Source: a virus
Virus record (IMG/VR): IMGVR_UViG_3300009182_000002
Coordinates: 1-64,000 of that record
Direction: 5' to 3' (one strand)
DNA length: 64,000 nt
Below the pieces are notes generated by a model. The model made no database searches. It worked only from the letters and a program-made list of their open reading frames with translations, and had not been told where the DNA came from. Positions within the stretch are counted from its first letter, which is position 1. Every line of letters starts with the position of its first letter. Position numbers and translations under genes: made by a program. Shown here one piece after another: positions 31,352 to 45,677 of this stretch.

Positions 31352-32168
31352 CGGTGATCTCCTTTTGCCCCTCTACCGCGTCGAACTGGGTGCTGAGATT
31401 GCGTCTGCGTGCGTAGGACCGGGAGAACCGACCAAGATTCCCCTCCGACTTCTGGTTCTCCTCGCTCGTGGTATCCCAGAACGACTTCCCGGCAGGCTCG
31501 GATCGACGGTCGTCGCGGTGGTGGATGTCTGCGTAGTCCTCAGCAGAGGCCTCTTTGGACGCCAGAGTGTCGGCATCCCACTGGGAACTGGTGCCAACCT
31601 GCTCCGCAGCCTCCGAAGGACCGGTTCCGGAGTCCCAGAGGCTCTGCCTCTTGTCGAGGACGGGGAGGTTCTCTGCGTGGTGCCCTAGGGCATGGATCAG
31701 TGCCCGGGAGCGCTCATTGCGGCTGGTGCCACTGCGGACAGTCACATGCAGCCGTGAGACCGGCAATTGCTCCTCAGAACCGTCCTTGAGCCGGTAACTG
31801 GCTGACTCCGTGTACTTTGCTGAAGGGTGAGGCTGTTCAGCCTCCATTCCCGGCTTGAACCAGCCGCTGACACCGGATTCGTTCACAGCGTCACTGGTGT
31901 TCCCTGCACGCACGATGTCGAGGTTTCGCAGGTCAGAGGCAGGGACAGTGGACCTAGCCACGTCCTCTTTCATCTGAGCGACCTCTTCAGGGTCACCGGA
32001 GAGCCTCTTGGTGCCCTCGATGGCCTCGCTAACCTCCCGCATCCGCTCAGGGTTGTATCCCCTCGGATACCTCTCGGAGTCCTGCATCCAGAAAGCAGGA
32101 CGTGCGAGCATCCCCTGATCCTCACCCGGGGCGAAGTAAGGCTCAGCAGCGTTCTTCTTCCGAGGCAA
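31338..32168 (-). CDS. zincin-like protein with degenerate HExxH
   Basis: ALIHALGHH..KEASAEDYA; TAGGAG RBS. Confidence 0.55.
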   Translation of the reverse strand: MPRKKNAAEPYFAPGEDQGMLARPAFWMQDSERYPRGYNPERMREVSEAIEGTKRLSGDPEEVAQMKEDVARSTVPASDLRNLDIVRAGNTSDAVNESGVSGWFKPGMEAEQPHPSAKYTESASYRLKDGSEEQLPVSRLHVTVRSGTSRNERSRALIHALGHHAENLPVLDKRQSLWDSGTGPSEAAEQVGTSSQWDADTLASKEASAEDYADIHHRDDRRSEPAGKSFWDTTSEENQKSEGNLGRFSRSYARRRNLSTQFDAVEGQKEITDGNS

Positions 32169-32949
32169 GACAGGGCTCCTAGATAACGGAAGCCCTCCGC
32201 CACTCCAGTATCCAAGGGGACTGACACCCTAGAAAGCGTCAAATGTACAAGTTTTCCTTTTCCCCCTTAGCAACGTTGTAAAAGGGGATGTGACAAGATT
32301 TAGGAACTTTAGTTTTGGGTTCCATAGCAACGGGAGGGCCCAGATGCTCCAAGCAACGCTTGCTAGGGCCTTAGCAATTATTTTAAAGATCGCTCGTCTC
32401 AACGAAGATTCTTGATCGAGAGCGAGTACAGCCCTCCCGCTCCCAAGTTCGGCACGCCATTTGGGCAACTGCCTGAGATTTCAAGGGCCACCTATGCCTG
32501 AGCACTGGCCCCGCGCTGGTGGCGCAAGCGCTTAAGGGTGGGCGGGTCGCTCTGGCTGGCAAGCCGTTAGCCACGCTAAGCAACGGAGCCCTGCCCGGAG
32601 GGCTTCGAGTCGCTCGAGCCCGCTCCGGGCCACTGCCTCGCGACGGGGTGGCGGCGTGGCGGTGCGGGCAGGCTTCGGGATGGTGGTCCGGTGCTGTGAG
32701 TAACCAGCAGCGCGCTGGTGGTGCTGGAGCGCTCACTGGCACCGGGCGAGGGGTCCGGCTTGCCAAGGTCTCAGAATGGCGCTGTGGGCTTGCTAGGGCC
32801 ATCCCAGCGTTGAGCCGGTCCGGTCTCAGCCCTTTCACAGCAGCGTGTTCCAGCGTTGGAAACTTCTTTGGTAACGGTTTGGTAACGAGGGCTGTTTACG
32901 GGAATGAACGCCTTGGCAACCGCGTTGTTGATCAAGCAACACGATCGAC

Positions 32950-33395
32950 ACGGCACCGCGCAGCGCAGGCCCCCGGCTCTCGGGGCGAGCCCCTCGCGAT
33001 GGCCACCACAGCGGGTGAGCGAGCGACCCTCGTACCTCCCAGCGCCACGACCACGGGCTGGGGAAGGGCGACGGTTAAGCAGCCGGACCCGTCCAAGGAG
33101 ACAACTCTGTCGTGCTTCGGTGCGGCAGACGGTCAACAGGGGCACGCCCCGGTCTCCAGATGAATCCGTTGACGTGTCCGGACCATCTGCCGGTCTACCC
33201 GTGAGTGACCGCGCCAAGAACAACCACGGGCCTACTGCATTGCCCATGAAGTGACCTGTGAAGCCCTTGTGGCTTCGCCGGGATTCCCGCCGTGTGCGGG
33301 GAGTGCCTGACACCCCAACGGAATGGCGGGGTGACCATGGGAGGCCAACAACTGTGGTGGGAGCGGGGTGGCCACGCCGCCCCGTTCCCCCACCA
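32950..33395 (+). ncRNA. candidate large structured ncRNA
   Basis: nested helices, a cUUCGg tetraloop, G-U pairs favouring the plus strand, no credible ORF. Confidence 0.55.
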
Positions 33396-33396
33396 A

Positions 33397-33469
33397 GAGC
33401 CGCTGATGAACTGGTCATCGACGGTCGGCAGGCCACCGACCTGACGGGGTTCGACTCCCCGGTGGCTCA
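33397..33469 (+). ncRNA. tRNA-like cloverleaf (non-canonical anticodon loop)
   Basis: acceptor GAGCCGC/GTGGCTC+A; D arm GATGA/TCATC; stem GGTCGG/CCGACC with loop CAGGCCA; T arm CGGGG-TTCGACT-CCCCG. Confidence 0.75.
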
Positions 33470-33504
33470 CGCTCCATACCCACAACCAACCACTAGGAGA
33501 GCCC

Positions 33505-33747
33505 ATGTCCATTCCCACAACCAACCACGACGACCTGACCACGATGCTGGACGGGTCAGTGCAGGTCACCCTCACCCGCGCGGCAGTCGTTGACCTGCTG
33601 AGCGCGCTGGGACGTTCACTCACTGAGAACACCGGCGAGGTTCACATCGTCCTTGACGTGTGCGAACACCGCGCGTGGTTCGACGTGCGCGGTACGTCTG
33701 GCCGCATCGGCGGGGCAGTCACGCACTGCTACTGCGTCATCAACTAG
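33505..33747 (+). CDS. early hypothetical protein
   Basis: 80 aa, CTAGGAG RBS. Confidence 0.7.
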   Translation: MSIPTTNHDDLTTMLDGSVQVTLTRAAVVDLLSALGRSLTENTGEVHIVLDVCEHRAWFDVRGTSGRIGGAVTHCYCVIN

Positions 33748-33806
33748 GCGAAACAGGGCCATCGCGGCCCTGTCCACGGGGTTGGCATCCCCGTGCTGAC
33801 GAGCCT
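33746..33806 (+). ncRNA. hammerhead ribozyme, type II
   Basis: AGGC-GAAA-CAGGGCC(atcgc)GGCCCTG-TC-CACGGGG(ttggcat)CCCCGTG-CTGACGA-GCCT: complete core and three stems. Confidence 0.92.
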
Positions 33807-33831
33807 GCCACCAACCTAGGAGAGTGAAGCC

Positions 33832-35280
33832 TTGACAACTGGACTGCCCACATTCGCCGCGCTGATTCGCAGCGCGCCGGGTCCTGACAACCGCTGGTGC
33901 GAGGTCCTCATCGTGAGGTCCTTCGACACCTTCTCACCGCTGCACGTTCCCGGCGTTGGACCAGCGCCGCTGTTCTACATCCGGAACACCGGGGGCGGTC
34001 GGGGACCGTCCAACGCATGGGTCGCCGTCACCGACGTTCCTGCTCAGGAGCGCGCTGCATGGTGCGGCAATGACCCTCTCGTCGTGCCGCTCACCACGCA
34101 CGACGTGACCGCAGTTGCTAGCGCTCGCAACTTGCCGCCCAAGTCGCTGCTCACGCGGCTCCAGTCGCGCATCGACCGCGTGCCGCTCAATCAAGCCGTT
34201 GGGCTAACCATTGGCAACGTCGTTGACGCTCTGGTGCAGGCCACCGACGTGTTCGCCACGGTCGTGCCTGCTGCTCCCAAGGTCGCCCCGGCTCAGGTCG
34301 TGGTGGCCGCGCCGGTCATTCCTCAGGTGTCGGCCATCCCGGCTCCCGTGCTGACAGTGCCGGTTGCCAGCACGGCACCGGTTGCCAGCGCTGGTCCCGT
34401 GGTCGTGCTTGACGACGACCAGCCCGACTCCGACGACGGCTCCGTCACGGTCGTCGTGCAGGACGGCGCGTGCCGCAAGGCCATCGTCCTGCCGCCGTCG
34501 TTCGCTGACTCGTACATCCACCGTGCGGTGTTCGGAGTCGATGACTTCACGGTGCTGGATGAGGCACGGGCCAAGGGCGACAGCGTCGGGCTGTACGGCC
34601 CCACGGGCTCTGCCAAGACCACCGTTGCCAAGGCTTACGCGGCAGCGCGCGGTCTCCCGTATGTGCAGGTCTCAGGCACCGCGACGATGGAAGAGTCGCG
34701 GATGTTCGGTCGCTGGATCGACCTTGGCCAGTGGCAGGACGGCGTCGTCAGCGAGGTGGTCCGCTACGGCGGTCTACTCATCCTTGACGAGATCAACATG
34801 CTCCCGCCGAACATCAGCGCGAGCCTGTTCCCGCTGCTTCGCGAGCGGGTCCTCACCCTGCACGACAAGGACGGCGAGACCATCACCGCCCACCCGTCGC
34901 TGATCGTCATCGCGACGTGGAACCCGAACTACTCCGGTACGCGCGAACTGAACGCCGCGCTCGCCAACCGGTTCGGGGTGCAGGTTGAGTGGGGCTACGA
35001 CGACCGTGTTGAGAAGGCGCTTGGCATCTGCAACAGCCTTCGCGCTGCTGCTGGTCGCCTTCGTGCCAGCGAGGTCAAGGGCGAGGTCAGCGCCCCCTGC
35101 CCGACCAACGCGCTGGTTGACTTCCAGCACTACGCCGGTCGGCTGGGGCTGGACTTCGCGGTTGGCAACTTCGTCGCCCGGTACCACGACGATGTTGAGC
35201 GCAAGGCCGTGCAGGCCGTGTTCGACACCTTCCGTTCCAGCATCGAAAACGAGTTGGGGCTGGCTCAGGCAACCGTCTGA
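33832..35280 (+). CDS. MoxR/CbbQ/CobS-like AAA+ ATPase
   Basis: GPTGSAKT, LLILDEIN, ATWNPNYSGTRELNAALANRF. Confidence 0.88.
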   Translation: MTTGLPTFAALIRSAPGPDNRWCEVLIVRSFDTFSPLHVPGVGPAPLFYIRNTGGGRGPSNAWVAVTDVPAQERAAWCGNDPLVVPLTTHDVTAVASARNLPPKSLLTRLQSRIDRVPLNQAVGLTIGNVVDALVQATDVFATVVPAAPKVAPAQVVVAAPVIPQVSAIPAPVLTVPVASTAPVASAGPVVVLDDDQPDSDDGSVTVVVQDGACRKAIVLPPSFADSYIHRAVFGVDDFTVLDEARAKGDSVGLYGPTGSAKTTVAKAYAAARGLPYVQVSGTATMEESRMFGRWIDLGQWQDGVVSEVVRYGGLLILDEINMLPPNISASLFPLLRERVLTLHDKDGETITAHPSLIVIATWNPNYSGTRELNAALANRFGVQVEWGYDDRVEKALGICNSLRAAAGRLRASEVKGEVSAPCPTNALVDFQHYAGRLGLDFAVGNFVARYHDDVERKAVQAVFDTFRSSIENELGLAQATV

Positions 35281-35344
35281 GCCAGCACCAGCACCACCTA
35301 GCAAGCCCTACCAACCACTACCAACCTCTAGGAGAGCGATCACC

Positions 35345-36271
35345 TTGGCAATCACTTCACCCCTCACCGCCGACCGCTTGCTTGGCCCCGGCGCTGAACG
35401 TGGCGAGCGGCTCGCACGCCTCGCCGCCATCTTCACCAAGTCCAACAGCATCCTGTCCGGTCAGTCGGTCAAGGTGCGTATTGAGACCAACGACTGGGCT
35501 TGCCCACCGGCCCCGGCATGGTCCGATGGCCAGAACATCTGGTTCAAGGGCAGCGACATTCGTGACGCTGACTTCGACTCCATCGTCAACCTGTACGGTC
35601 TCAACTACCACGAACTGGGCCACATCCTGTGGACACCCCGTCAGTCGCACCCGCTGGCGACTTGGGCTTGGCGCAACCGTCACTGGTCCACGATGAACCT
35701 CTTGGAAGACCAGCGCATCGAAACGGCGATGACCCGCCGCTGGCCTTCGACGGCACCGTGGCTCACCGCGTGCGTCCTGCGCTGGGTGCTGGCCGACCCC
35801 AAGACCCTCAGCACGTCCTACCTGCTGCTGCGTGGTCGTCGCTTCCTCCCGGCTGACGTGCGCGGACTGTCACGTCAGGCCTTCGAGCGTCAGGACCTGC
35901 TCCCTGAGGTTGACCGCATCGTTGACGCCTACCGGGAACTGCGCTTCCCAGAGAAGCCCAACCTGCGCCGCGTATCGGAGCGCAACCTGTACGACCGTGC
36001 TCAGGCGCTGATCACCGACTACAGCGCGCTGATTGCCAGCCTTAACAACCAGCCCACGTCGTCGCCTAACCACGGCAACGACGAGACATCACCGGTAACC
36101 AACGGCTACCCAGCGCCTCACGATCCCAATGAGGCCAACACCGACGACCAGTACGACGACGAGCCCCAGCCCGGTCAGGGTAGCGACGGGGACCAGAACG
36201 ACCAGCACGACGACACCAACGACAGCGGCGCGGGCACCCCGTGCTGCTCCTGCGACGGAGGCAGCCACTGA
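35345..36271 (+). CDS. CobT/vWA-partner N-terminal metallopeptidase-like protein
   Basis: AWSDG, NYHELGHIL, NLLEDQRIE; TTG start after CTAGGAG. Confidence 0.8.
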   Translation: MAITSPLTADRLLGPGAERGERLARLAAIFTKSNSILSGQSVKVRIETNDWACPPAPAWSDGQNIWFKGSDIRDADFDSIVNLYGLNYHELGHILWTPRQSHPLATWAWRNRHWSTMNLLEDQRIETAMTRRWPSTAPWLTACVLRWVLADPKTLSTSYLLLRGRRFLPADVRGLSRQAFERQDLLPEVDRIVDAYRELRFPEKPNLRRVSERNLYDRAQALITDYSALIASLNNQPTSSPNHGNDETSPVTNGYPAPHDPNEANTDDQYDDEPQPGQGSDGDQNDQHDDTNDSGAGTPCCSCDGGSH

Positions 36272-37464
36272 TGAACGACGACACCATGCCCAACACAAGC
36301 GCCTGCTCCTGCGGTTGCCACGGTCCTGCCGCTGGCAACGAGCCTGCCAACGACCAGCCGGGTGGCTCTGGCAACGAGCCGGGTCAGCCCCAGCCCGGCA
36401 ACGAGCCGGGTCGGCCCGGCAACGGCGACCAGCCCGGCGACCAGCCCGGCGAGGGCGAGGGTCAGGGCGAGGGCGACCAGCCCGGTGAGTCCGACGGCGG
36501 CGGCGCGAACGGCGGCGCTGGCTCCGACGGCGAGACCGGGCTGGACGGCGGCGAGGCCAACGGTGCTGGCACCGGGGTTACCAACGCCCCCGACATTGCC
36601 AAGGCCTTGCAAGACGCTGCTAGCAAGGCTCTCGACAACATCACCAACGACGTCGATATCGCTGGCGAGGCCAGCAGCGCTGTCAACGCTGTTGTCAAGG
36701 GCGGCGGTCACGTCCAGATCCTGCGCGACTCCCGCTTCGACACCTTCGCCCCCAGCGACGAGGCTCGCCTCGCTGAGCGCCGCGCGGTGCGGGAGTTCAA
36801 CACCCTCCGCGCAGACGCTGAGGAGGGCTGGGACCGCGCCCGTCCGCAGGGTCGGCTGAACGTCGGTCGCTACATCTCTAGCAACGGGGACCTTGACGTG
36901 GCCTTCGACCAGTGGCGTGACCGCAAGGGTGACGCCTCCGACCTTGAGGTTGTGCTACTGCTGGACGACTCAATGTCCATGGCTTCCTACCGCGTGGTCA
37001 GCGCGGAGGCCATGTGGGTACTCAAGCGTGGCCTTGACGCCATCGGTGCCAACACCACGGTGGTCATGTTCCACTCCGAGTCCCGCGTCCTGTACAAGCC
37101 GACCGACAAGGCTGAGGCGGGTCGCCTCCGCTGCTCAACTGAGAGCGGCGGCACTGACCCCAGCGAGGGCATCGCTCAGGCGGCGCGCATCTTCGCCGGG
37201 AGCCGCAAGGGTCAGAAGGTGCTGATCACCATCACCGATGGCGACTACTGGGGTGAGTCTGTCCCTGCCAACTGCGACTACAACATTGACGACATTGTCA
37301 AGGCCATGACCAACAGCGGCGTCGTCACTGCTCAGGTCCTGTTCAACCACGCGAGCGAGCAGACTCACGGGCACGCGATCAGCACTCAGGTCTCGCAGGT
37401 TGAGGAGATCGCGTCCTTTGCCAAGGAACTTGTCAAGGCTGCTATCAAGTCTCGCCAGCGCTAG
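36271..37464 (+). CDS. von Willebrand factor A domain protein
   Basis: GRLNVGR, LLLDDSMSM (MIDAS), GGTDP, ITITDGD; GGAGG RBS and TGATG coupling. Confidence 0.88.
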   Translation: MNDDTMPNTSACSCGCHGPAAGNEPANDQPGGSGNEPGQPQPGNEPGRPGNGDQPGDQPGEGEGQGEGDQPGESDGGGANGGAGSDGETGLDGGEANGAGTGVTNAPDIAKALQDAASKALDNITNDVDIAGEASSAVNAVVKGGGHVQILRDSRFDTFAPSDEARLAERRAVREFNTLRADAEEGWDRARPQGRLNVGRYISSNGDLDVAFDQWRDRKGDASDLEVVLLLDDSMSMASYRVVSAEAMWVLKRGLDAIGANTTVVMFHSESRVLYKPTDKAEAGRLRCSTESGGTDPSEGIAQAARIFAGSRKGQKVLITITDGDYWGESVPANCDYNIDDIVKAMTNSGVVTAQVLFNHASEQTHGHAISTQVSQVEEIASFAKELVKAAIKSRQR

Positions 37465-37473
37465 CAACGGGCT

Positions 37474-37506
37474 AACCCAGCAGGCCCCAAAGGGGCCTGC
37501 TGGGTT
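37474..37506 (+). terminator. 15 bp hairpin after the vWA gene
   Basis: aacccagcaggcccc-aaa-ggggcctgctgggtt. Confidence 0.7.
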
Positions 37507-37534
37507 GCTTCCCAACACAAGCAATTACCAACCC

Positions 37535-37578
37535 CAGCGCGACTAGCAGCCACCCCGGTGCAAGGCCGGGGCGCGCAC
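37535..37578 (+). repeat. 44 bp tRNA-minihelix-like element, copy 1
   Basis: identical to 38595-38638. Confidence 0.85.
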
Positions 37579-37610
37579 TGGTGCGACGAGCGCACCTAGC
37601 AACGAGAGGA

Positions 37611-37808
37611 ATGCCAATGCCCGAGATCAACGCCACCTACACCGTCGATGTTGACGGCACCCTTCACATCACACACCGCGAGTGCGGCGTCGTTCAAGAA
37701 GTCAAGCCGGTGCGCGAGTTCGCTGACGGCACCTGCTCGTTCGGTTCCGATGCCGACGTGTGCCTCGCCTGCGAGAACGAGGGTCGCCCGGCGACCCTCA
37801 ACTACTAG
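37611..37808 (+). CDS. small zinc-binding protein
   Basis: HREC..CLAC; GAGAGGA RBS. Confidence 0.55.
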   Translation: MPMPEINATYTVDVDGTLHITHRECGVVQEVKPVREFADGTCSFGSDADVCLACENEGRPATLNY

Positions 37809-37953
37809 GGGGCTGGCTCATGCTGCACAGCGCACGATCCCGAGCCCACCACGGCCATCGCGGTTGCTACTGCTGCGACTGGCCCGTAAGCAACCGCACA
37901 CTTCGCCAGCGCGAGAGGCGCGCTTGGCAACGACAGATTGAGAGGGAGTACGC

Positions 37954-38199
37954 ATGACCCACATCCCGGCGCAGGACGCCAACAACGCAACCGTCATCCG
38001 GTTGCTTGAGGAGATCGCCTCGCTTCAAGCAACCATCGACTCGCTCATCCCACGCGAGGACCCCGAGGTTCGGGCCGAGCGTTACCGCACCACGGCGAGC
38101 GACCGCTTCCAGTACAGCGACGGCGCTGACGCTGTCGGCTTCCATCTTGAGCGCATGTCCGCGCCCGACTACGACCCCTACTACGACGAGAGGTACTGA
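37954..38199 (+). CDS. hypothetical protein
   Basis: GGGAG RBS, ATGA overlap. Confidence 0.65.
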   Translation: MTHIPAQDANNATVIRLLEEIASLQATIDSLIPREDPEVRAERYRTTASDRFQYSDGADAVGFHLERMSAPDYDPYYDERY

Positions 38200-38201
38200 C
38201 C

Positions 38202-38513
38202 ATGACCACGATCACCATCACCATCCCGACCGACCTCGCAGACGCCATCGCAGATGCGCTGACCAAGTGCGTGCTGCGGGCCAGCGCTGACGCTGAACGG
38301 ACTGTCGCAGGGCCAGCGTACGAGCGAGCAGAAGAGGCAACCCGGTACTTCGGGGACGCGCTCGTCGCCTTCAACTACGCCCGCGACATTGACCCTCTAG
38401 CGCGAGAGTGCGGGGCATGCGGTGCGGAGTCAGGCGAGGACTGCCGGTGGCACTGCACCGCGCGGCCCGACGATGACAACGTGCCCAACACAAGCAATCT
38501 CATCGACGCTTAG
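38202..38513 (+). CDS. hypothetical protein with C-terminal zinc finger
   Basis: CGACGAESGEDCRWHC. Confidence 0.65.
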   Translation: MTTITITIPTDLADAIADALTKCVLRASADAERTVAGPAYERAEEATRYFGDALVAFNYARDIDPLARECGACGAESGEDCRWHCTARPDDDNVPNTSNLIDA

Positions 38514-38594
38514 GGCTTGGCTTACCCACTGCGGTTGTCCAAGAATGTTGTCGGAGGCAGGAATACCAAGATCAACTAAGGGTGTTGCCACACT

Positions 38595-38638
38595 CAGCGC
38601 GACTAGCAGCCACCCCGGTGCAAGGCCGGGGCGCGCAC
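38595..38638 (+). repeat. 44 bp tRNA-minihelix-like element, copy 2
   Basis: identical to 37535-37578. Confidence 0.85.
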
Positions 38639-38683
38639 GCTCACGACGAACCGTTCGTCGTATGTAGCCAAAGGAGGGCCAAC

Positions 38684-38968
38684 ATGGCCGAGTACATCTT
38701 CATTGAGGAAGAACCGCAGGTTAGTTCAGGACCACGCCTCAACCACCAGCAGGTCACGCTCGCGCGTCGTGTGCGTGACGCAGGCGGCTGGGTTGCCGTC
38801 ATTCGCTTCGACAAGAAGTCGGCGGCGAACGTCGCGGCCTCCCGCATCCGTCGCGGCAACGCGGCGTCGTGGGCGTACGTCGGCACCTTCGACACCAAGG
38901 TCGGCCAGCGCCCCGGCGAGTCCGAGTGGACCGTCTACGCGCTCTACACCGGAGAGGCAAGCAACTGA
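38684..38968 (+). CDS. hypothetical protein, paralogue of 40284-40616
   Basis: AAAGGAGG RBS; GWVAV..A.RI..G..A.W..VGTFD..V..VYA. Confidence 0.75.
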   Translation: MAEYIFIEEEPQVSSGPRLNHQQVTLARRVRDAGGWVAVIRFDKKSAANVAASRIRRGNAASWAYVGTFDTKVGQRPGESEWTVYALYTGEASN

Positions 38969-39489
38969 TGACTACCACCAACCAACCCACCGTTGACGAG
39001 CAGCGCGCACAGGTCTTGGCTGACAACCCCGGCCTTGACAAGGCGTTGACAACCAACCACCACATCGTTGAGGACATCTCCGCCCGCTTCGCTGCGACCG
39101 GTCGCCTTTCCGAGAAGCAGATCGCGCTCGTCTTCAAACTCGCCAAGCAAGACGCTGCCGCTAAGCAGCGTGAGGCTGAGCGCGAGGTAGCAGACATGCT
39201 GGTCCGCGAGTCTGGCATCACCATCACCCCCGGCAAGCAGGTCATCTTCGGAAGCGTCGTGTCTCTCAACCTGAAGGACAGCGGCTTCGGCCCGACGTGG
39301 AAGATGATCGTTGAGCACCCCAGCGGTCTGAAGTACTGGGGCACCGTCCCTAGCAACCTCGTCGGTGCTCTTGCCAAGGGTGATCAAGTTGAGTTCACCG
39401 CAACCGTGTCGGTCTCCGACAACGATCCAAAACCCATCTTCGGGTTCTACAAGCGCCCGACCAACGCCGCACTTATCAAGTCGGCCTGA
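38968..39489 (+). CDS. hypothetical protein, C-terminal OB-fold-like
   Basis: GRLSEKQIA, KYWGTVP, FGFYKRPT. Confidence 0.7.
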   Translation: MTTTNQPTVDEQRAQVLADNPGLDKALTTNHHIVEDISARFAATGRLSEKQIALVFKLAKQDAAAKQREAEREVADMLVRESGITITPGKQVIFGSVVSLNLKDSGFGPTWKMIVEHPSGLKYWGTVPSNLVGALAKGDQVEFTATVSVSDNDPKPIFGFYKRPTNAALIKSA

Positions 39490-39505
39490 CAAGGAGGAAC
39501 ACAGA

Positions 39506-39859
39506 ATGATTGACAAGAAGCAGGTAGTGATTCCAATTACCGTTGATGCCGCCGAGTTCTGGTCGGCCATCTTCGGAGCCGAGCCGTTCATCTGGCCATG
39601 GTGGGTCAAGGTGGACTACGCCGAGGGCTGCGACTGGGAGACCCCCGGCGAGGTCACCATCACCGTCGCTGACCCCGACGACGCTGAGGACAGCACGACC
39701 AAGACCCTCACGCTTGAGGATCTTGTCGCCGCGTACCTCATCGCGCTGGAGCAGTATCCGCGTTCTGTTGGCGTCGGCTGGGAGACCCCCGACTTCGACT
39801 CTGAGAGCAGCGACCTCATCCTCCAGATCGCAGTGCAGGGTGAGGTGGTGTTCGGATGA
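39506..39859 (+). CDS. acidic hypothetical protein
   Basis: AAGGAGG RBS; C-terminal D..D.ILQIAVQGEVVFG. Confidence 0.7.
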   Translation: MIDKKQVVIPITVDAAEFWSAIFGAEPFIWPWWVKVDYAEGCDWETPGEVTITVADPDDAEDSTTKTLTLEDLVAAYLIALEQYPRSVGVGWETPDFDSESSDLILQIAVQGEVVFG

Positions 39860-40283
39860 GCATCTGCCAATGGTTCGCCTTGTGCGACCGAGAGGCCACG
39901 CAGTCTGTCCCTCACCCCGTGCTGGGTGATGTCCCGACGTGCGACCGCTGCGCGTCGTTCGCCAATGGGGGTGCCTGACATGGAGCAGGTCATCAACATC
40001 GACTTCACAGACCTTGACGACGCTTACCACAAGATCGTCAAGTTGCTAGTAGACAACGGAATGGTTGACCGGGAGGCGCGCGTTTCGGCGCGCTTCCTGC
40101 TCGCCGGAGTGGAGGACAAGTGAGACTCACAACCCGAGGCTGGGTCTGCCTGTGGACGTTGGTATGCGTGCTTGCTATCGCTGTCAACGCTGCTTTCGCA
40201 GACAAGCAGGTCGAGTGCCGCGTCGAGAACCTCTCGACATGCCACATAACAACAACCGCTAACAACATCGGAGGCAACTAACA

Positions 40284-43600: not shown

Positions 43601-43658
43601 CCTCATCGACTGTACTGCTGGAGCCTCAGTGCTACATCGTCCACCGTCATGTAGGGCG

Positions 43659-45677
43659 TCAATTCAACGGCACCTCACAAGCATCGGTCGTGCAGTAGGC
43701 CTCTCCAACTGCGTCTAGGGCGTTGCCCTTGTAGACGCTGTTTAGATTGATCTTCTTCAACTTCCGCTTCCAAGCGTCGTACTCGTCTTTGCTGATCTGG
43801 GTGTAGGGCTGCTGCGGATAGACCTTGTTACCCATTGGCAAGAACGAGACGGTCTTAAGCCGACCCTCGTACATGTGGAGCACAGTGCCGACATGCTTTG
43901 CCTCTGTCTCAGAGTCGAACGACAGGGTGACGCTGACGCTGTTGTCAGACCAGTATTGCTGGGCCAACGCGGCGAGGTTCGCTTTCTCAAACAGCGACAC
44001 GTCCTTCTCCGCGCGCACGGGAACGCTCTTCACTGGGAAGTAGACCACCGACGTGTTGGAGTCAGTCACAGCGTCTTCCACCGCGTAACCGGCGTCGATG
44101 AACTTGGCGACCATGGGGTCGCTTTTGGCAAACCGGATGGCCCGCAGAACATGCTCGCCACCGGGGGGCCAGTGGACGCCCGGTGTCTCACCCGCGAGGA
44201 TGCTCACCGTTCCCGAGGGTTTGACTGTCGTGGTCTTGATCGACTCACGGACGCAGAGCCACTCCGAGTAGATGGAGTCCCAGCGCTGGACCTCGCCGTA
44301 GCCGGTGTCGAGCCACTCCCTAAGCAACGGGAGTGAGCGGGAGTCCGCGAAGCCTGCGAGTCCCGAGACGCTCGTGCCGATGCGGCGGTTGCGCTGCATG
44401 ATCGCGTTGGTAGTGGGCCAGTGCGTTGGAATGAGAGTCACGGTCTTGGCGTAGAGGTAAGCAAACTTGAGAGTCCTCAAGAAATCCTTGAGGTCGTCAT
44501 GCCTATTGATATACGTCTCTACCAACGTGCAGCACTCGTATGACTCCAACGACTGCTCAGCGCAAGGGTTGTAACCGGCTACGCGATAGTCCTTGTTGTT
44601 AACGGGATCGTTCAAGCGACCGTACTTGCGAGATACATCCAGCCAGATGAAACCCGGCTCACCATTCAAAGCAATGTTCTCAACGAACGGCGAGTAGTCC
44701 ATACCAACGGTTGCTTCCAATGAGTTGTTAGACATCCAACCCCATCCCGGATTGTCTGGGGAGTAGGAGTTTCGTTCGGGGAAGGTTTCCGGATTCTTTA
44801 AATTCACGAAGTCGTTGTCAACGGGCTTGCCAAGAGCGAGTTCGGCAGAGCGACGCACGTTGCCGGAGACCACGCAGACGCCGATCAGGTTGGCGATGTC
44901 AACGATGGTCTTGCTATCAAGAGTCTTGCCAACCATCGGATCGAGAACCGCGCGCAACTTGGTGTGCAGTCGGATCAACGGCTCGGGACCTGCCGCCGTA
45001 CCTCCGAAGGTCTTGATCGGTTCACCCGCAGGACGAATCAATCCGTAGTCGAAGACGTACGTTGGCTGGTTGTTCTTGAGGTATGAGTCCAGCAGCATGC
45101 CGACGCTCTCCACCCAGCCCTCACGGGTGTCGGGGATGACGAAGTCCACCTTGTTGTCAGTGGGGTGGCTGACCTCAATGGCACGGCTCACACCATTTGT
45201 GTCGAAGCCGACCCCGATCCCCAGCATGCTCGCCTCCATGAGGAACAGGAACGGGGCGCTTGGGTTGTTCTTGGTCATGTCAGCGGTAGAGACGAAAGCG
45301 CAGTTCTGGAGCGCGGCGCTGTTGCGTCCCTCCATCACCAACGGAGTGCCCATCATCCACAGACCACGACCGGGAGGCGTCCACTTCAGATTGAAGAGGC
45401 GGTCGAATGCTTCCTGAGCACTGGCCTGCGCTTGGTGCCCGTTCCATGGGAGACGGTTCTCCTTGCAGTGGTCTTTCTGGATGCTGTACATGCCGTTGAT
45501 AACACGTTCGCACACATCGACCCACGTCTCCTTGGAGCCGTCCTCCTTCAGGCGCGAGTACGTTCGCATGAAGGTGATCTCACCAACGCTGTTGCCAGCC
45601 ACGTCGGTGTACCCCCACGGCACAGGCTGGGTTCGGTAGTACGAGACGAAGTCATCCGTCAGTCGAAACGAAAACAA
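43659..45677 (-). CDS. nrdJ: class II (B12-dependent, RTPR-type) ribonucleotide reductase
   Basis: PPGRGLW, LQNCAF, GNVRRSA, NPCAEQ, TTVKPSGT, C-terminal CTTDAC. Confidence 0.93.
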   Translation of the reverse strand: MFSFRLTDDFVSYYRTQPVPWGYTDVAGNSVGEITFMRTYSRLKEDGSKETWVDVCERVINGMYSIQKDHCKENRLPWNGHQAQASAQEAFDRLFNLKWTPPGRGLWMMGTPLVMEGRNSAALQNCAFVSTADMTKNNPSAPFLFLMEASMLGIGVGFDTNGVSRAIEVSHPTDNKVDFVIPDTREGWVESVGMLLDSYLKNNQPTYVFDYGLIRPAGEPIKTFGGTAAGPEPLIRLHTKLRAVLDPMVGKTLDSKTIVDIANLIGVCVVSGNVRRSAELALGKPVDNDFVNLKNPETFPERNSYSPDNPGWGWMSNNSLEATVGMDYSPFVENIALNGEPGFIWLDVSRKYGRLNDPVNNKDYRVAGYNPCAEQSLESYECCTLVETYINRHDDLKDFLRTLKFAYLYAKTVTLIPTHWPTTNAIMQRNRRIGTSVSGLAGFADSRSLPLLREWLDTGYGEVQRWDSIYSEWLCVRESIKTTTVKPSGTVSILAGETPGVHWPPGGEHVLRAIRFAKSDPMVAKFIDAGYAVEDAVTDSNTSVVYFPVKSVPVRAEKDVSLFEKANLAALAQQYWSDNSVSVTLSFDSETEAKHVGTVLHMYEGRLKTVSFLPMGNKVYPQQPYTQISKDEYDAWKRKLKKINLNSVYKGNALDAVGEAYCTTDACEVPLN

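Follow-up and report, generated by a model that had tools for sequence, protein, structure and literature searches.

An 84-nt gap separates two plus-strand genes of a phage genome, one of them small (33505-33747) and the other beginning with a TTG codon (33832-35280), and the question raised by this locus is what the RNA transcribed from the gap might do to the message in which it lies. The stretch of DNA that we analyzed, referred to here as the window, comprises the initial 64 kb of an IMG/VR virus record of 97,729 bp that has direct terminal repeats and is rated complete; the record represents an uncultured 97.7-kb phage whose host probably belongs to the Actinomycetota. A first-pass annotation made from the letters of the window had placed a complete type II hammerhead ribozyme directly upstream of a set of genes that it called MoxR, peptidase and vWA. 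Our analyses indicate that a ribozyme fills the gap, and sequence comparison leads us to conclude that positions 33746-33813 constitute an evolutionarily conserved type II hammerhead situated between phage genes. The genes concerned, together with the ribosome-binding site that follows the ribozyme, are these:

33505..33747, plus strand: upstream small gene of 80 aa, with an ATG start, an AGGAGA Shine-Dalgarno sequence and a TAG stop at 33745-33747 (from the ORF list)
33818..33824, plus strand: Shine-Dalgarno sequence AGGAGAG of the ATPase gene, 8 nt past the pseudoknot tail; GGGGAG in L046, the related contig described below
33832..35280, plus strand: AAA_5 (MoxR/CobS-like) ATPase gene of 482 aa, with a TTG start
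35345-36271, plus strand: second gene of the ATPase unit, with a weak 'peptidase' PHROG match (E 8e-5 over 47 residues)
36241-37464, plus strand: third gene of the ATPase unit, with a vWA domain

The G+C content of the small gene is 0.76-0.84 at third codon positions versus 0.40-0.54 at second positions, and the gene is without a Pfam or PHROG family. The TTG-initiated gene matches Pfam AAA_5 (E 6e-22), Pfam AAA_3 (E 6.5e-8) and phrog_249 (E 1e-37). The MoxR-like ATPase and the vWA protein named in the first-pass annotation are therefore borne out, whereas its 'peptidase' has only the weak PHROG match behind it. The second gene after the ribozyme has a Shine-Dalgarno sequence and a TTG codon at 35330-35347. 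No ORF of at least 60 aa overlaps the ribozyme on the minus strand. A scan of the region from 32 to 38 kb for promoters and terminators returned no sites, a result that is uninformative for an actinophage; because neither kind of element was detected, the transcript discussed below is assumed from the orientation of the genes. We also considered a read-through fusion of the small ORF to the ATPase, the two sharing a frame in the window with a TAG, 23 codons and another TAG between them. This candidate was rejected because the frames differ in L046 (ATG at 157, TTG at 551) and because each gene has its own Shine-Dalgarno sequence.

To identify the element we relied on the Rfam covariance model of type II hammerheads, a search that the first-pass annotation had put forward as a check on its proposal. 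The match to Hammerhead_II (RF02276) scored 42.1 bits against a gathering score of 37, with E values of 3.2e-5 (64-kb window) and 1.1e-8 (genome), and the same search of 14 control genomes gave no match. Scanning the whole window at curated thresholds yielded three Rfam matches, namely two tRNAs and Hammerhead_II. We found no further ribozyme of any Rfam class, either at gathering scores over all 97.7 kb or at E values up to 5 over the region from 28 to 46 kb. The ribozyme match is far beyond chance. Its parts are as follows:

33746..33813, plus strand: type II hammerhead, whole Rfam match (RF02276, model positions 1-66 of 66)
33747..33749, plus strand: stem II 5' strand GGC, pairing with GCC at 33803-33805; invariant between the two lineages compared below
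33750..33753, plus strand: core GAAA (G12 A13 A14 A15.1), the same in contigs L046 and L166
33753..33773, plus strand: stem III hairpin, 8 bp including A15.1:U16.1, with loop AUCGC
33774..33775, plus strand: predicted cleavage site, after C33774 (H17), at the H17 position of the Rfam alignment
33775..33795, plus strand: stem I hairpin, 7 bp, with loop UUGGCAU
33783..33787, plus strand: pseudoknot strand UGGCA in loop I, pairing with UGCCA at 33806-33810
33796..33802, plus strand: core CUGACGA (C3 U4 G5 A6 N7 G8 A9, with N7 = C), the same in the second lineage
33803..33810, plus strand: stem II 3' strand GCC (33803-33805) followed by the pseudoknot tail UGCCA (33806-33810)

The invariant catalytic core is complete, comprising CUGACGA, GAAA, the 15.1:16.1 pair (A33753:U33773) and, at H17, a base other than G (C33774). 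The order of elements is stem II-5', GAAA, stem III, cleavage site, stem I, CUGANGA and stem II-3', and both the Rfam structure line and the minimum-energy fold have stems I and III closed by loops and stem II open, which is the type II topology. The strands of stem III are CAGGGCC and GGCCCUG (33754-33760 and 33766-33772), and those of stem I are CACGGGG and CCCCGUG (33775-33781 and 33789-33795). The same three-way junction is recovered as the minimum-energy fold of 33740-33815 (-33.4 kcal/mol, z -2.6). All of the positions given in the first-pass annotation proved right in the sequence (GAAA at 33750-33753, GUC at 33772-33774 and CUGACGA at 33796-33802), its 7-bp stems I and III are present in a fold that reproduces the junction, and its identification of a complete type II hammerhead agrees with the Rfam alignment and the sequence and is backed by the covariation described below. 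The cut that it predicted after C33774 likewise falls at the position that the alignment assigns to H17, and in the geometry that it had outlined cleavage would give a 3' product headed by the stem I hairpin, with C33775 as its first base, 57 nt ahead of the TTG at 33832.

In two respects the earlier reading of the structure required revision. It had ended the element at 33806, a limit that takes in the core and stems and misses a pseudoknot; because loop I pairs with the 3' tail, the element extends to approximately 33810-33813. The contiguous pairs between loop I and the tail number five in the window and six in L046. [quoted passage not shown] The earlier reading had also drawn stem II as four pairs, AGGC/GCCU at 33746-33749 and 33803-33806, overlapping the TAG stop codon of the small gene. 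The bases are as described and the overlap is present, G33747 of stem II being the last base of the TAG, but the fourth pair (A33746:U33806) is unlikely. Where the base after GCC is U, the loop base opposite it in the pseudoknot is A in 67 of 69 cases and the base before GGC is A in 45 of 69 (among the matches listed from the wider family described below). U33806 thus covaries with the loop A and less with the position of A33746, which argues that U33806 belongs to the pseudoknot, and we set aside the 4-bp form of stem II because the family statistics favor this assignment. Stem II therefore probably consists of 3 bp (GGC/GCC) and, judging by these sequences, shares a single base with the stop codon. 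Across 175 unique related hammerheads among the matches listed, loop and tail complementarity averages 4.62 contiguous pairs, compared with 4.18 +/- 0.05 pairs once the tails are shuffled among members.

To determine whether the element has been maintained by selection, we compared it with its counterpart in a second lineage. The ATPase has few close relatives in the protein database. The nearest, P0002, is 62% identical, shares the TTG start and N-terminus of the window protein, and is encoded on L046, a GTDB contig of 2,676 bp assigned to the bin of a Delaware Bay Actinomycetota MAG; a JGI metagenome contig, L166, has the same sequence and represents the same phage as L046. Further full-length homologues of the ATPase (P0003-P0017) are 36-43% identical, and neither a viral contig search nor blastn against cultured phages found close relatives of the window phage. 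At the equivalent gene junction, L046 and L166 each match Hammerhead_II with a score of 41.9 bits. The L046 ribozyme begins at the AG of a TAG stop codon and ends 19 nt ahead of a TTG start codon; the spacing to the stop codon and to the Shine-Dalgarno sequence is kept within 1 nt of that in the window. The upstream gene is also present at the same place in L046, as a 102-aa ORF whose product is 36% identical over 56 aa (E 1e-9) to that of the small gene.

Of the 68 bases, 10 differ between the two ribozymes, and eight of these differences make up four compensated pairs, of which stem I has three and stem III the fourth (A-U to G-C). Of the remaining two, one lies in loop III and the other, in the tail, makes the pseudoknot longer. 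No difference affects the core and no pair is broken; core, pseudoknot pairing and stem II are all kept. All helix cells are paired (100%), as opposed to 35-44% when the partners are slid relative to one another. In simulations with 10 random substitutions all pairs survived with a probability of 5e-4, and none of 200,000 trials produced as many as four compensated pairs. This covariation, which comes from two independent lineages only, indicates at the level of sequence that the ribozyme RNA is under selection for its fold, and it makes the L046 orthologue a set of natural compensatory mutants.

What would such a ribozyme do here? Cleavage by hammerheads occurs 3' of H17 and yields ends with a 2',3'-cyclic phosphate and a 5'-OH (PMC3088659, PMC8782182), and prophage type II hammerheads cleave both in vitro and in vivo (Perreault et al. 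2011, PMC3088659; D. vulgaris, PMC8782182). The pseudoknot between loop I and the 3' tail is typical of type II and is needed for fast cleavage (Perreault et al. 2011, PMC3088659). Motif, fold, conservation and gene context having been observed directly, we infer cleavage in vivo and an effect on expression. Specifically, we consider it likely, on the strength of these sequence features, that the ribozyme is active and that it separates the small gene from the ATPase, second and vWA genes by self-cleavage of a polycistronic message. The rightward (plus-strand) transcript would fold into the stem I and stem III hairpins, the open 3-bp stem II and the 5-bp pseudoknot between loop I and the 3' tail, and the folded RNA would then cut itself after C33774. 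Because stem II is an open helix, the cut would fall between two closed hairpins. On the upstream product the stop codon would be followed by 27 nt, the last element being the stem III hairpin (8 bp) and the 3' terminus a 2',3'-cyclic phosphate. The 5'-OH of the downstream product would sit on C33775, which opens the stem I hairpin (7 bp), and this end would lie 43 nt ahead of the Shine-Dalgarno sequence and 57 nt ahead of the TTG. After the cut only the three pairs of stem II would join the two pieces.

The hairpins at both new ends should resist 3' exonucleases and the 5'-monophosphate-dependent RNases E and J. When the cleaved RNA is folded in silico, stem I is found at the extreme 5' end and the Shine-Dalgarno sequence, which lies outside the ribozyme, is without strong pairing; the translation start of the ATPase gene would be insulated from upstream sequence. 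With shielded products and an insulated ATPase start, the parts of the operon could differ in stability and in yield. By analogy with engineered ribozyme insulators, then, it is probable that the stability and translation of the small gene are uncoupled from those of the ATPase, second and vWA genes. One insulator of this sort, RiboJ, was engineered from the sTRSV ribozyme, and in it a hammerhead just 5' of the Shine-Dalgarno sequence removes upstream RNA, leaves a 5' hairpin and standardizes translation; synthetic RiboJ-type ribozyme insulators were reportedly the work of Lou et al. (2012, Nat Biotechnol). The resemblance of the window element to RiboJ is one of function only and, for the natural element, is one that we infer.

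To determine how widely the arrangement occurs, we searched 40 more distant phages with homologous ATPase genes, namely 37 IMG/VR records, Brevibacterium phage Cantare and the Gordonia phages Hanem and GMA6. None of the 40 contains an RF02276 match above the cut-off anywhere, the best scores being two at 16 bits, far from the ATPase gene, and in the 23 of the 40 that were scanned no Rfam ribozyme of any class lies within approximately 3 kb of the ATPase gene. These findings indicate that the ribozyme is not needed for expression of the ATPase module in general, and that its link to the ATPase characterizes a small lineage and not the module as such. The ribozyme itself belongs to a subclass with a wide distribution. 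Searching IMG/VR with the exact pattern of this subclass (GGCGAAAC ... GUC ... CUGAYGAGCCNGCC) placed it on at least 119 phage contigs, many of which have two to five copies. For 172 unique copies with enough flanking sequence, among the matches listed, an ORF of at least 40 codons ends no more than 40 nt upstream in 156, and an ORF of at least 50 codons lies downstream in 149, starting a median of 21 nt past the motif (interquartile range 18-24) and preceded by a Shine-Dalgarno-like motif in 84% of the 149. Like the window copy, 133-156 of these 172 listed copies lie on the coding strand between genes of like orientation. The stop codon of the upstream ORF is 0-2 nt from stem II in 59 of the 156 listed cases and no more than 6 nt away in 97 of 156; since, counted from the other side, it is 3-40 nt away in the 97 listed cases other than those 59, overlap with the stop codon is common and not required. 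The layout of the family is nearly always stop codon, ribozyme, Shine-Dalgarno sequence and start codon, and the window copy, with its stop at offset 0 and its start at +22, falls within this pattern.

Two further conserved elements lie upstream of the small gene, one of them an 18-bp GC-rich hairpin (approximately 33354-33393, in the conserved stretch 33352-33396; L046 1-46) and the other, immediately 3' of it, a cloverleaf:

33397..33470, plus strand: tRNA-like cloverleaf, called as tRNA-Ala(ggc) by ARAGORN in the window only; positions 46-118 in L046

The cloverleaf sits 276 nt upstream of the hammerhead. It has no Rfam tRNA match at E values up to 5 and is not called by ARAGORN in L046, yet between the window and L046 its acceptor-like and D-like stems keep eight pairs through changes on both sides, and no change is seen in its T-like arm or in its anticodon-like arm, whose loop is CAGGCCA. 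The hairpin is identical at 44 of 45 bases, a degree of conservation much above that of the coding DNA (the neighboring proteins are 36-62% identical); the L046 contig begins at this hairpin and the comparison covers the sequence from there on.

These upstream elements bear on a different view of the ribozyme, according to which its main job is to make the 3' end of the small-gene message, host RNase P and RNase Z acting at the tRNA-like fold (33397-33470) and the ribozyme acting at 33774 to release an RNA of approximately 300 nt. The cloverleaf is a possible 5' boundary of such a message, and the fact that cloverleaf and hammerhead bracket the small gene suggests leader processing of the punctuation type. 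Both elements flank the small gene in both lineages, both have been kept through compensated changes, and both are far better conserved than the 36%-identical protein encoded between them; the near-identity of the 18-bp hairpin further upstream points in the same direction. Against this, the tRNA-like fold is without an Rfam tRNA match, goes uncalled in L046 and is seen in two lineages only. We regard this reading, which is compatible with separation of the operon parts by self-cleavage, as possible though doubtful, and it is with some hesitation that we would go on to describe hammerhead and cloverleaf as a two-part system that excises the small-gene message from the leader of the ATPase/vWA operon. 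A further view concerns translation: because the stop codon overlaps stem II, ribosomes finishing the small gene would unfold the 5' half of the ribozyme, and the level of small-gene translation might in this way set the extent of cleavage and the fate of the ATPase message. Both lineages have the TAG overlap, despite differences between the C-termini of their small proteins, and the closeness of stop codon and stem II in many of the listed family members (0-2 nt in 59 of 156, no more than 6 nt in 97) fits such a switch. In the remaining 59 listed cases, however, the stop is 8-40 nt away and overlap is not a requirement of the family; moreover, tight spacing is usual in phage genomes, and the A that precedes GGC belongs to the ribozyme consensus, which alone favors TGA, TAA or TAG at this position. 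Modulation of cleavage by terminating ribosomes is plausible and fits with the conserved overlap of stop codon and stem II, but a switch of this kind we consider unlikely.

The absence of the ribozyme from the 40 distant relatives with the ATPase module, and of any Rfam ribozyme near the gene in the 23 scanned, together with its single copy in the genome, might instead be taken to mean that the element is a leftover or a selfish insertion that cuts, or formerly cut, without benefit to the phage. The near-identical stem I and tail found in unrelated Streptomyces phages (see below) are compatible with horizontal spread. Purifying selection speaks against such a passenger, as the core, the pseudoknot and stem II have stayed the same, with compensation at four stem pairs, over a span in which the small protein has fallen to 36% identity (in its aligned core) and the ATPase to 62%; the spacing to stop codon and Shine-Dalgarno sequence, kept within 1 nt, speaks against it as well. 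We therefore judge it very unlikely. It is more improbable still, to the point of being hardly credible, that the element arose by chance or is non-catalytic, with two GC-rich hairpins stabilizing or insulating the RNA without cutting it. A GC-rich genome does form hairpins readily, and the z-score of the fold is only -2.6, but all of the invariant core bases, the pseudoknot and the exact architecture of the family are present and conserved, and the E value of 3e-5 in the window is set against the lack of any match in the 14 control genomes. Self-cleavage that separates the small gene from the ATPase unit thus remains the reading that we favor.

The element closely resembles the type II hammerheads described in bacteria and prophages (PMC3088659; RF02276), with which it has in common the permuted topology, the invariant core and a Watson-Crick pseudoknot, as well as a location between phage genes on the coding strand (PMC3088659). 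Position 7 is C in the window in place of the consensus U, at a site that is variable in the class. Whereas the hammerheads of PMC3088659 are clustered around single small genes, the window element is the one copy in a 97.7-kb phage; clustering around single genes, a frequent though not defining trait of phage hammerheads, is thus not seen in this genome. Also unlike the hammerheads of PMC3088659, the window copy precedes a long AAA+ ATPase/vWA module. The type II hammerheads of Desulfovibrio vulgaris (PMC8782182) belong to the same Rfam family and lie near phage-like genes, and cyPhyRNA-seq of D. vulgaris detected cleavage products with 2',3'-cyclic phosphate and 5'-OH ends in vivo (PMC8782182), although that host is of a different phylum and the window ribozyme is known from its sequence. 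Type II hammerheads with a pseudoknot have been known between prophage genes since 2011 (PMC3088659), so the window element is an ordinary new example and opens no new kind of biology. Later reviews have noted the link to phages, the biological benefit being unproven for any bacterial or phage hammerhead. Against this background the locus offers a clean, conserved example, with a single hammerhead at a defined operon junction and at a fixed distance from a stop codon and a ribosome-binding site.

Cultured phages also carry the subclass, as BLAST searches with the element matched Streptomyces phages. Streptomyces phage Andris (OP751147) has nine RF02276 matches, six of them above the cut-off, and these belong to the subclass of the window copy (GGCGAAAC ... 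CUGAYGAGCCUGCC). In the copy at 43622-43691 the stem I, its loop (UUGGCAU) and the tail are nearly identical to those of the window, and this copy occupies a gap just before a Shine-Dalgarno sequence and start codon. Unlike the window phage, Andris has several copies that precede small early genes, in an unrelated genome of 50 kb. The presence of the subclass in a cultured Streptomyces phage, together with the layout of the family, suggests a tractable system in which to study ribozyme function. The Andris hammerheads (OP751147.1, 41477-48962, minus strand) occupy the early-gene arm, where the record annotates none of them; the one at 45075-45137 is just upstream of gene 70 (CDS 44655-45059), which encodes an OCR-like antirestriction protein.

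We made several additional observations on the surroundings of the locus. The start regions of the ATPase gene (33810-33834) and of the gene that follows it (35319-35347), both on the plus strand, have in common the motif ACCAACCU, the sequence AGGAGAG, the sequence CCUUG and TTG start codons; the 64-nt C/A-rich spacer 3' of the ATPase gene was searched and no ribozyme was found in it. Two contigs with homologous ATPase genes, L020 and L022, each contain at 730-811 a match to the tmRNA model (64.7 bits, 82 nt), which could represent a fragment of a tmRNA gene at an integration site. The Gordonia and Brevibacterium phages encode a single vWA protein of 580-640 aa after the ATPase, in place of which the window has two overlapping ORFs (35345-36271 and 36241-37464) with a vWA domain in the second only. 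Upstream, approximately 1.3 kb (32168-33505) lies between divergent gene arms of the window, with no convincing coding signal before approximately 33250, and a comparable unannotated gap of approximately 1 kb between divergent genes is found upstream of the ATPase operons of Gordonia phages Hanem and GMA6. Lastly, the G+C content is 62-66% from 32000 to 40000 and 57-60% elsewhere in the window, and the ATPase/vWA module with its RNA-rich leader may have an origin separate from that of the rest of the phage.
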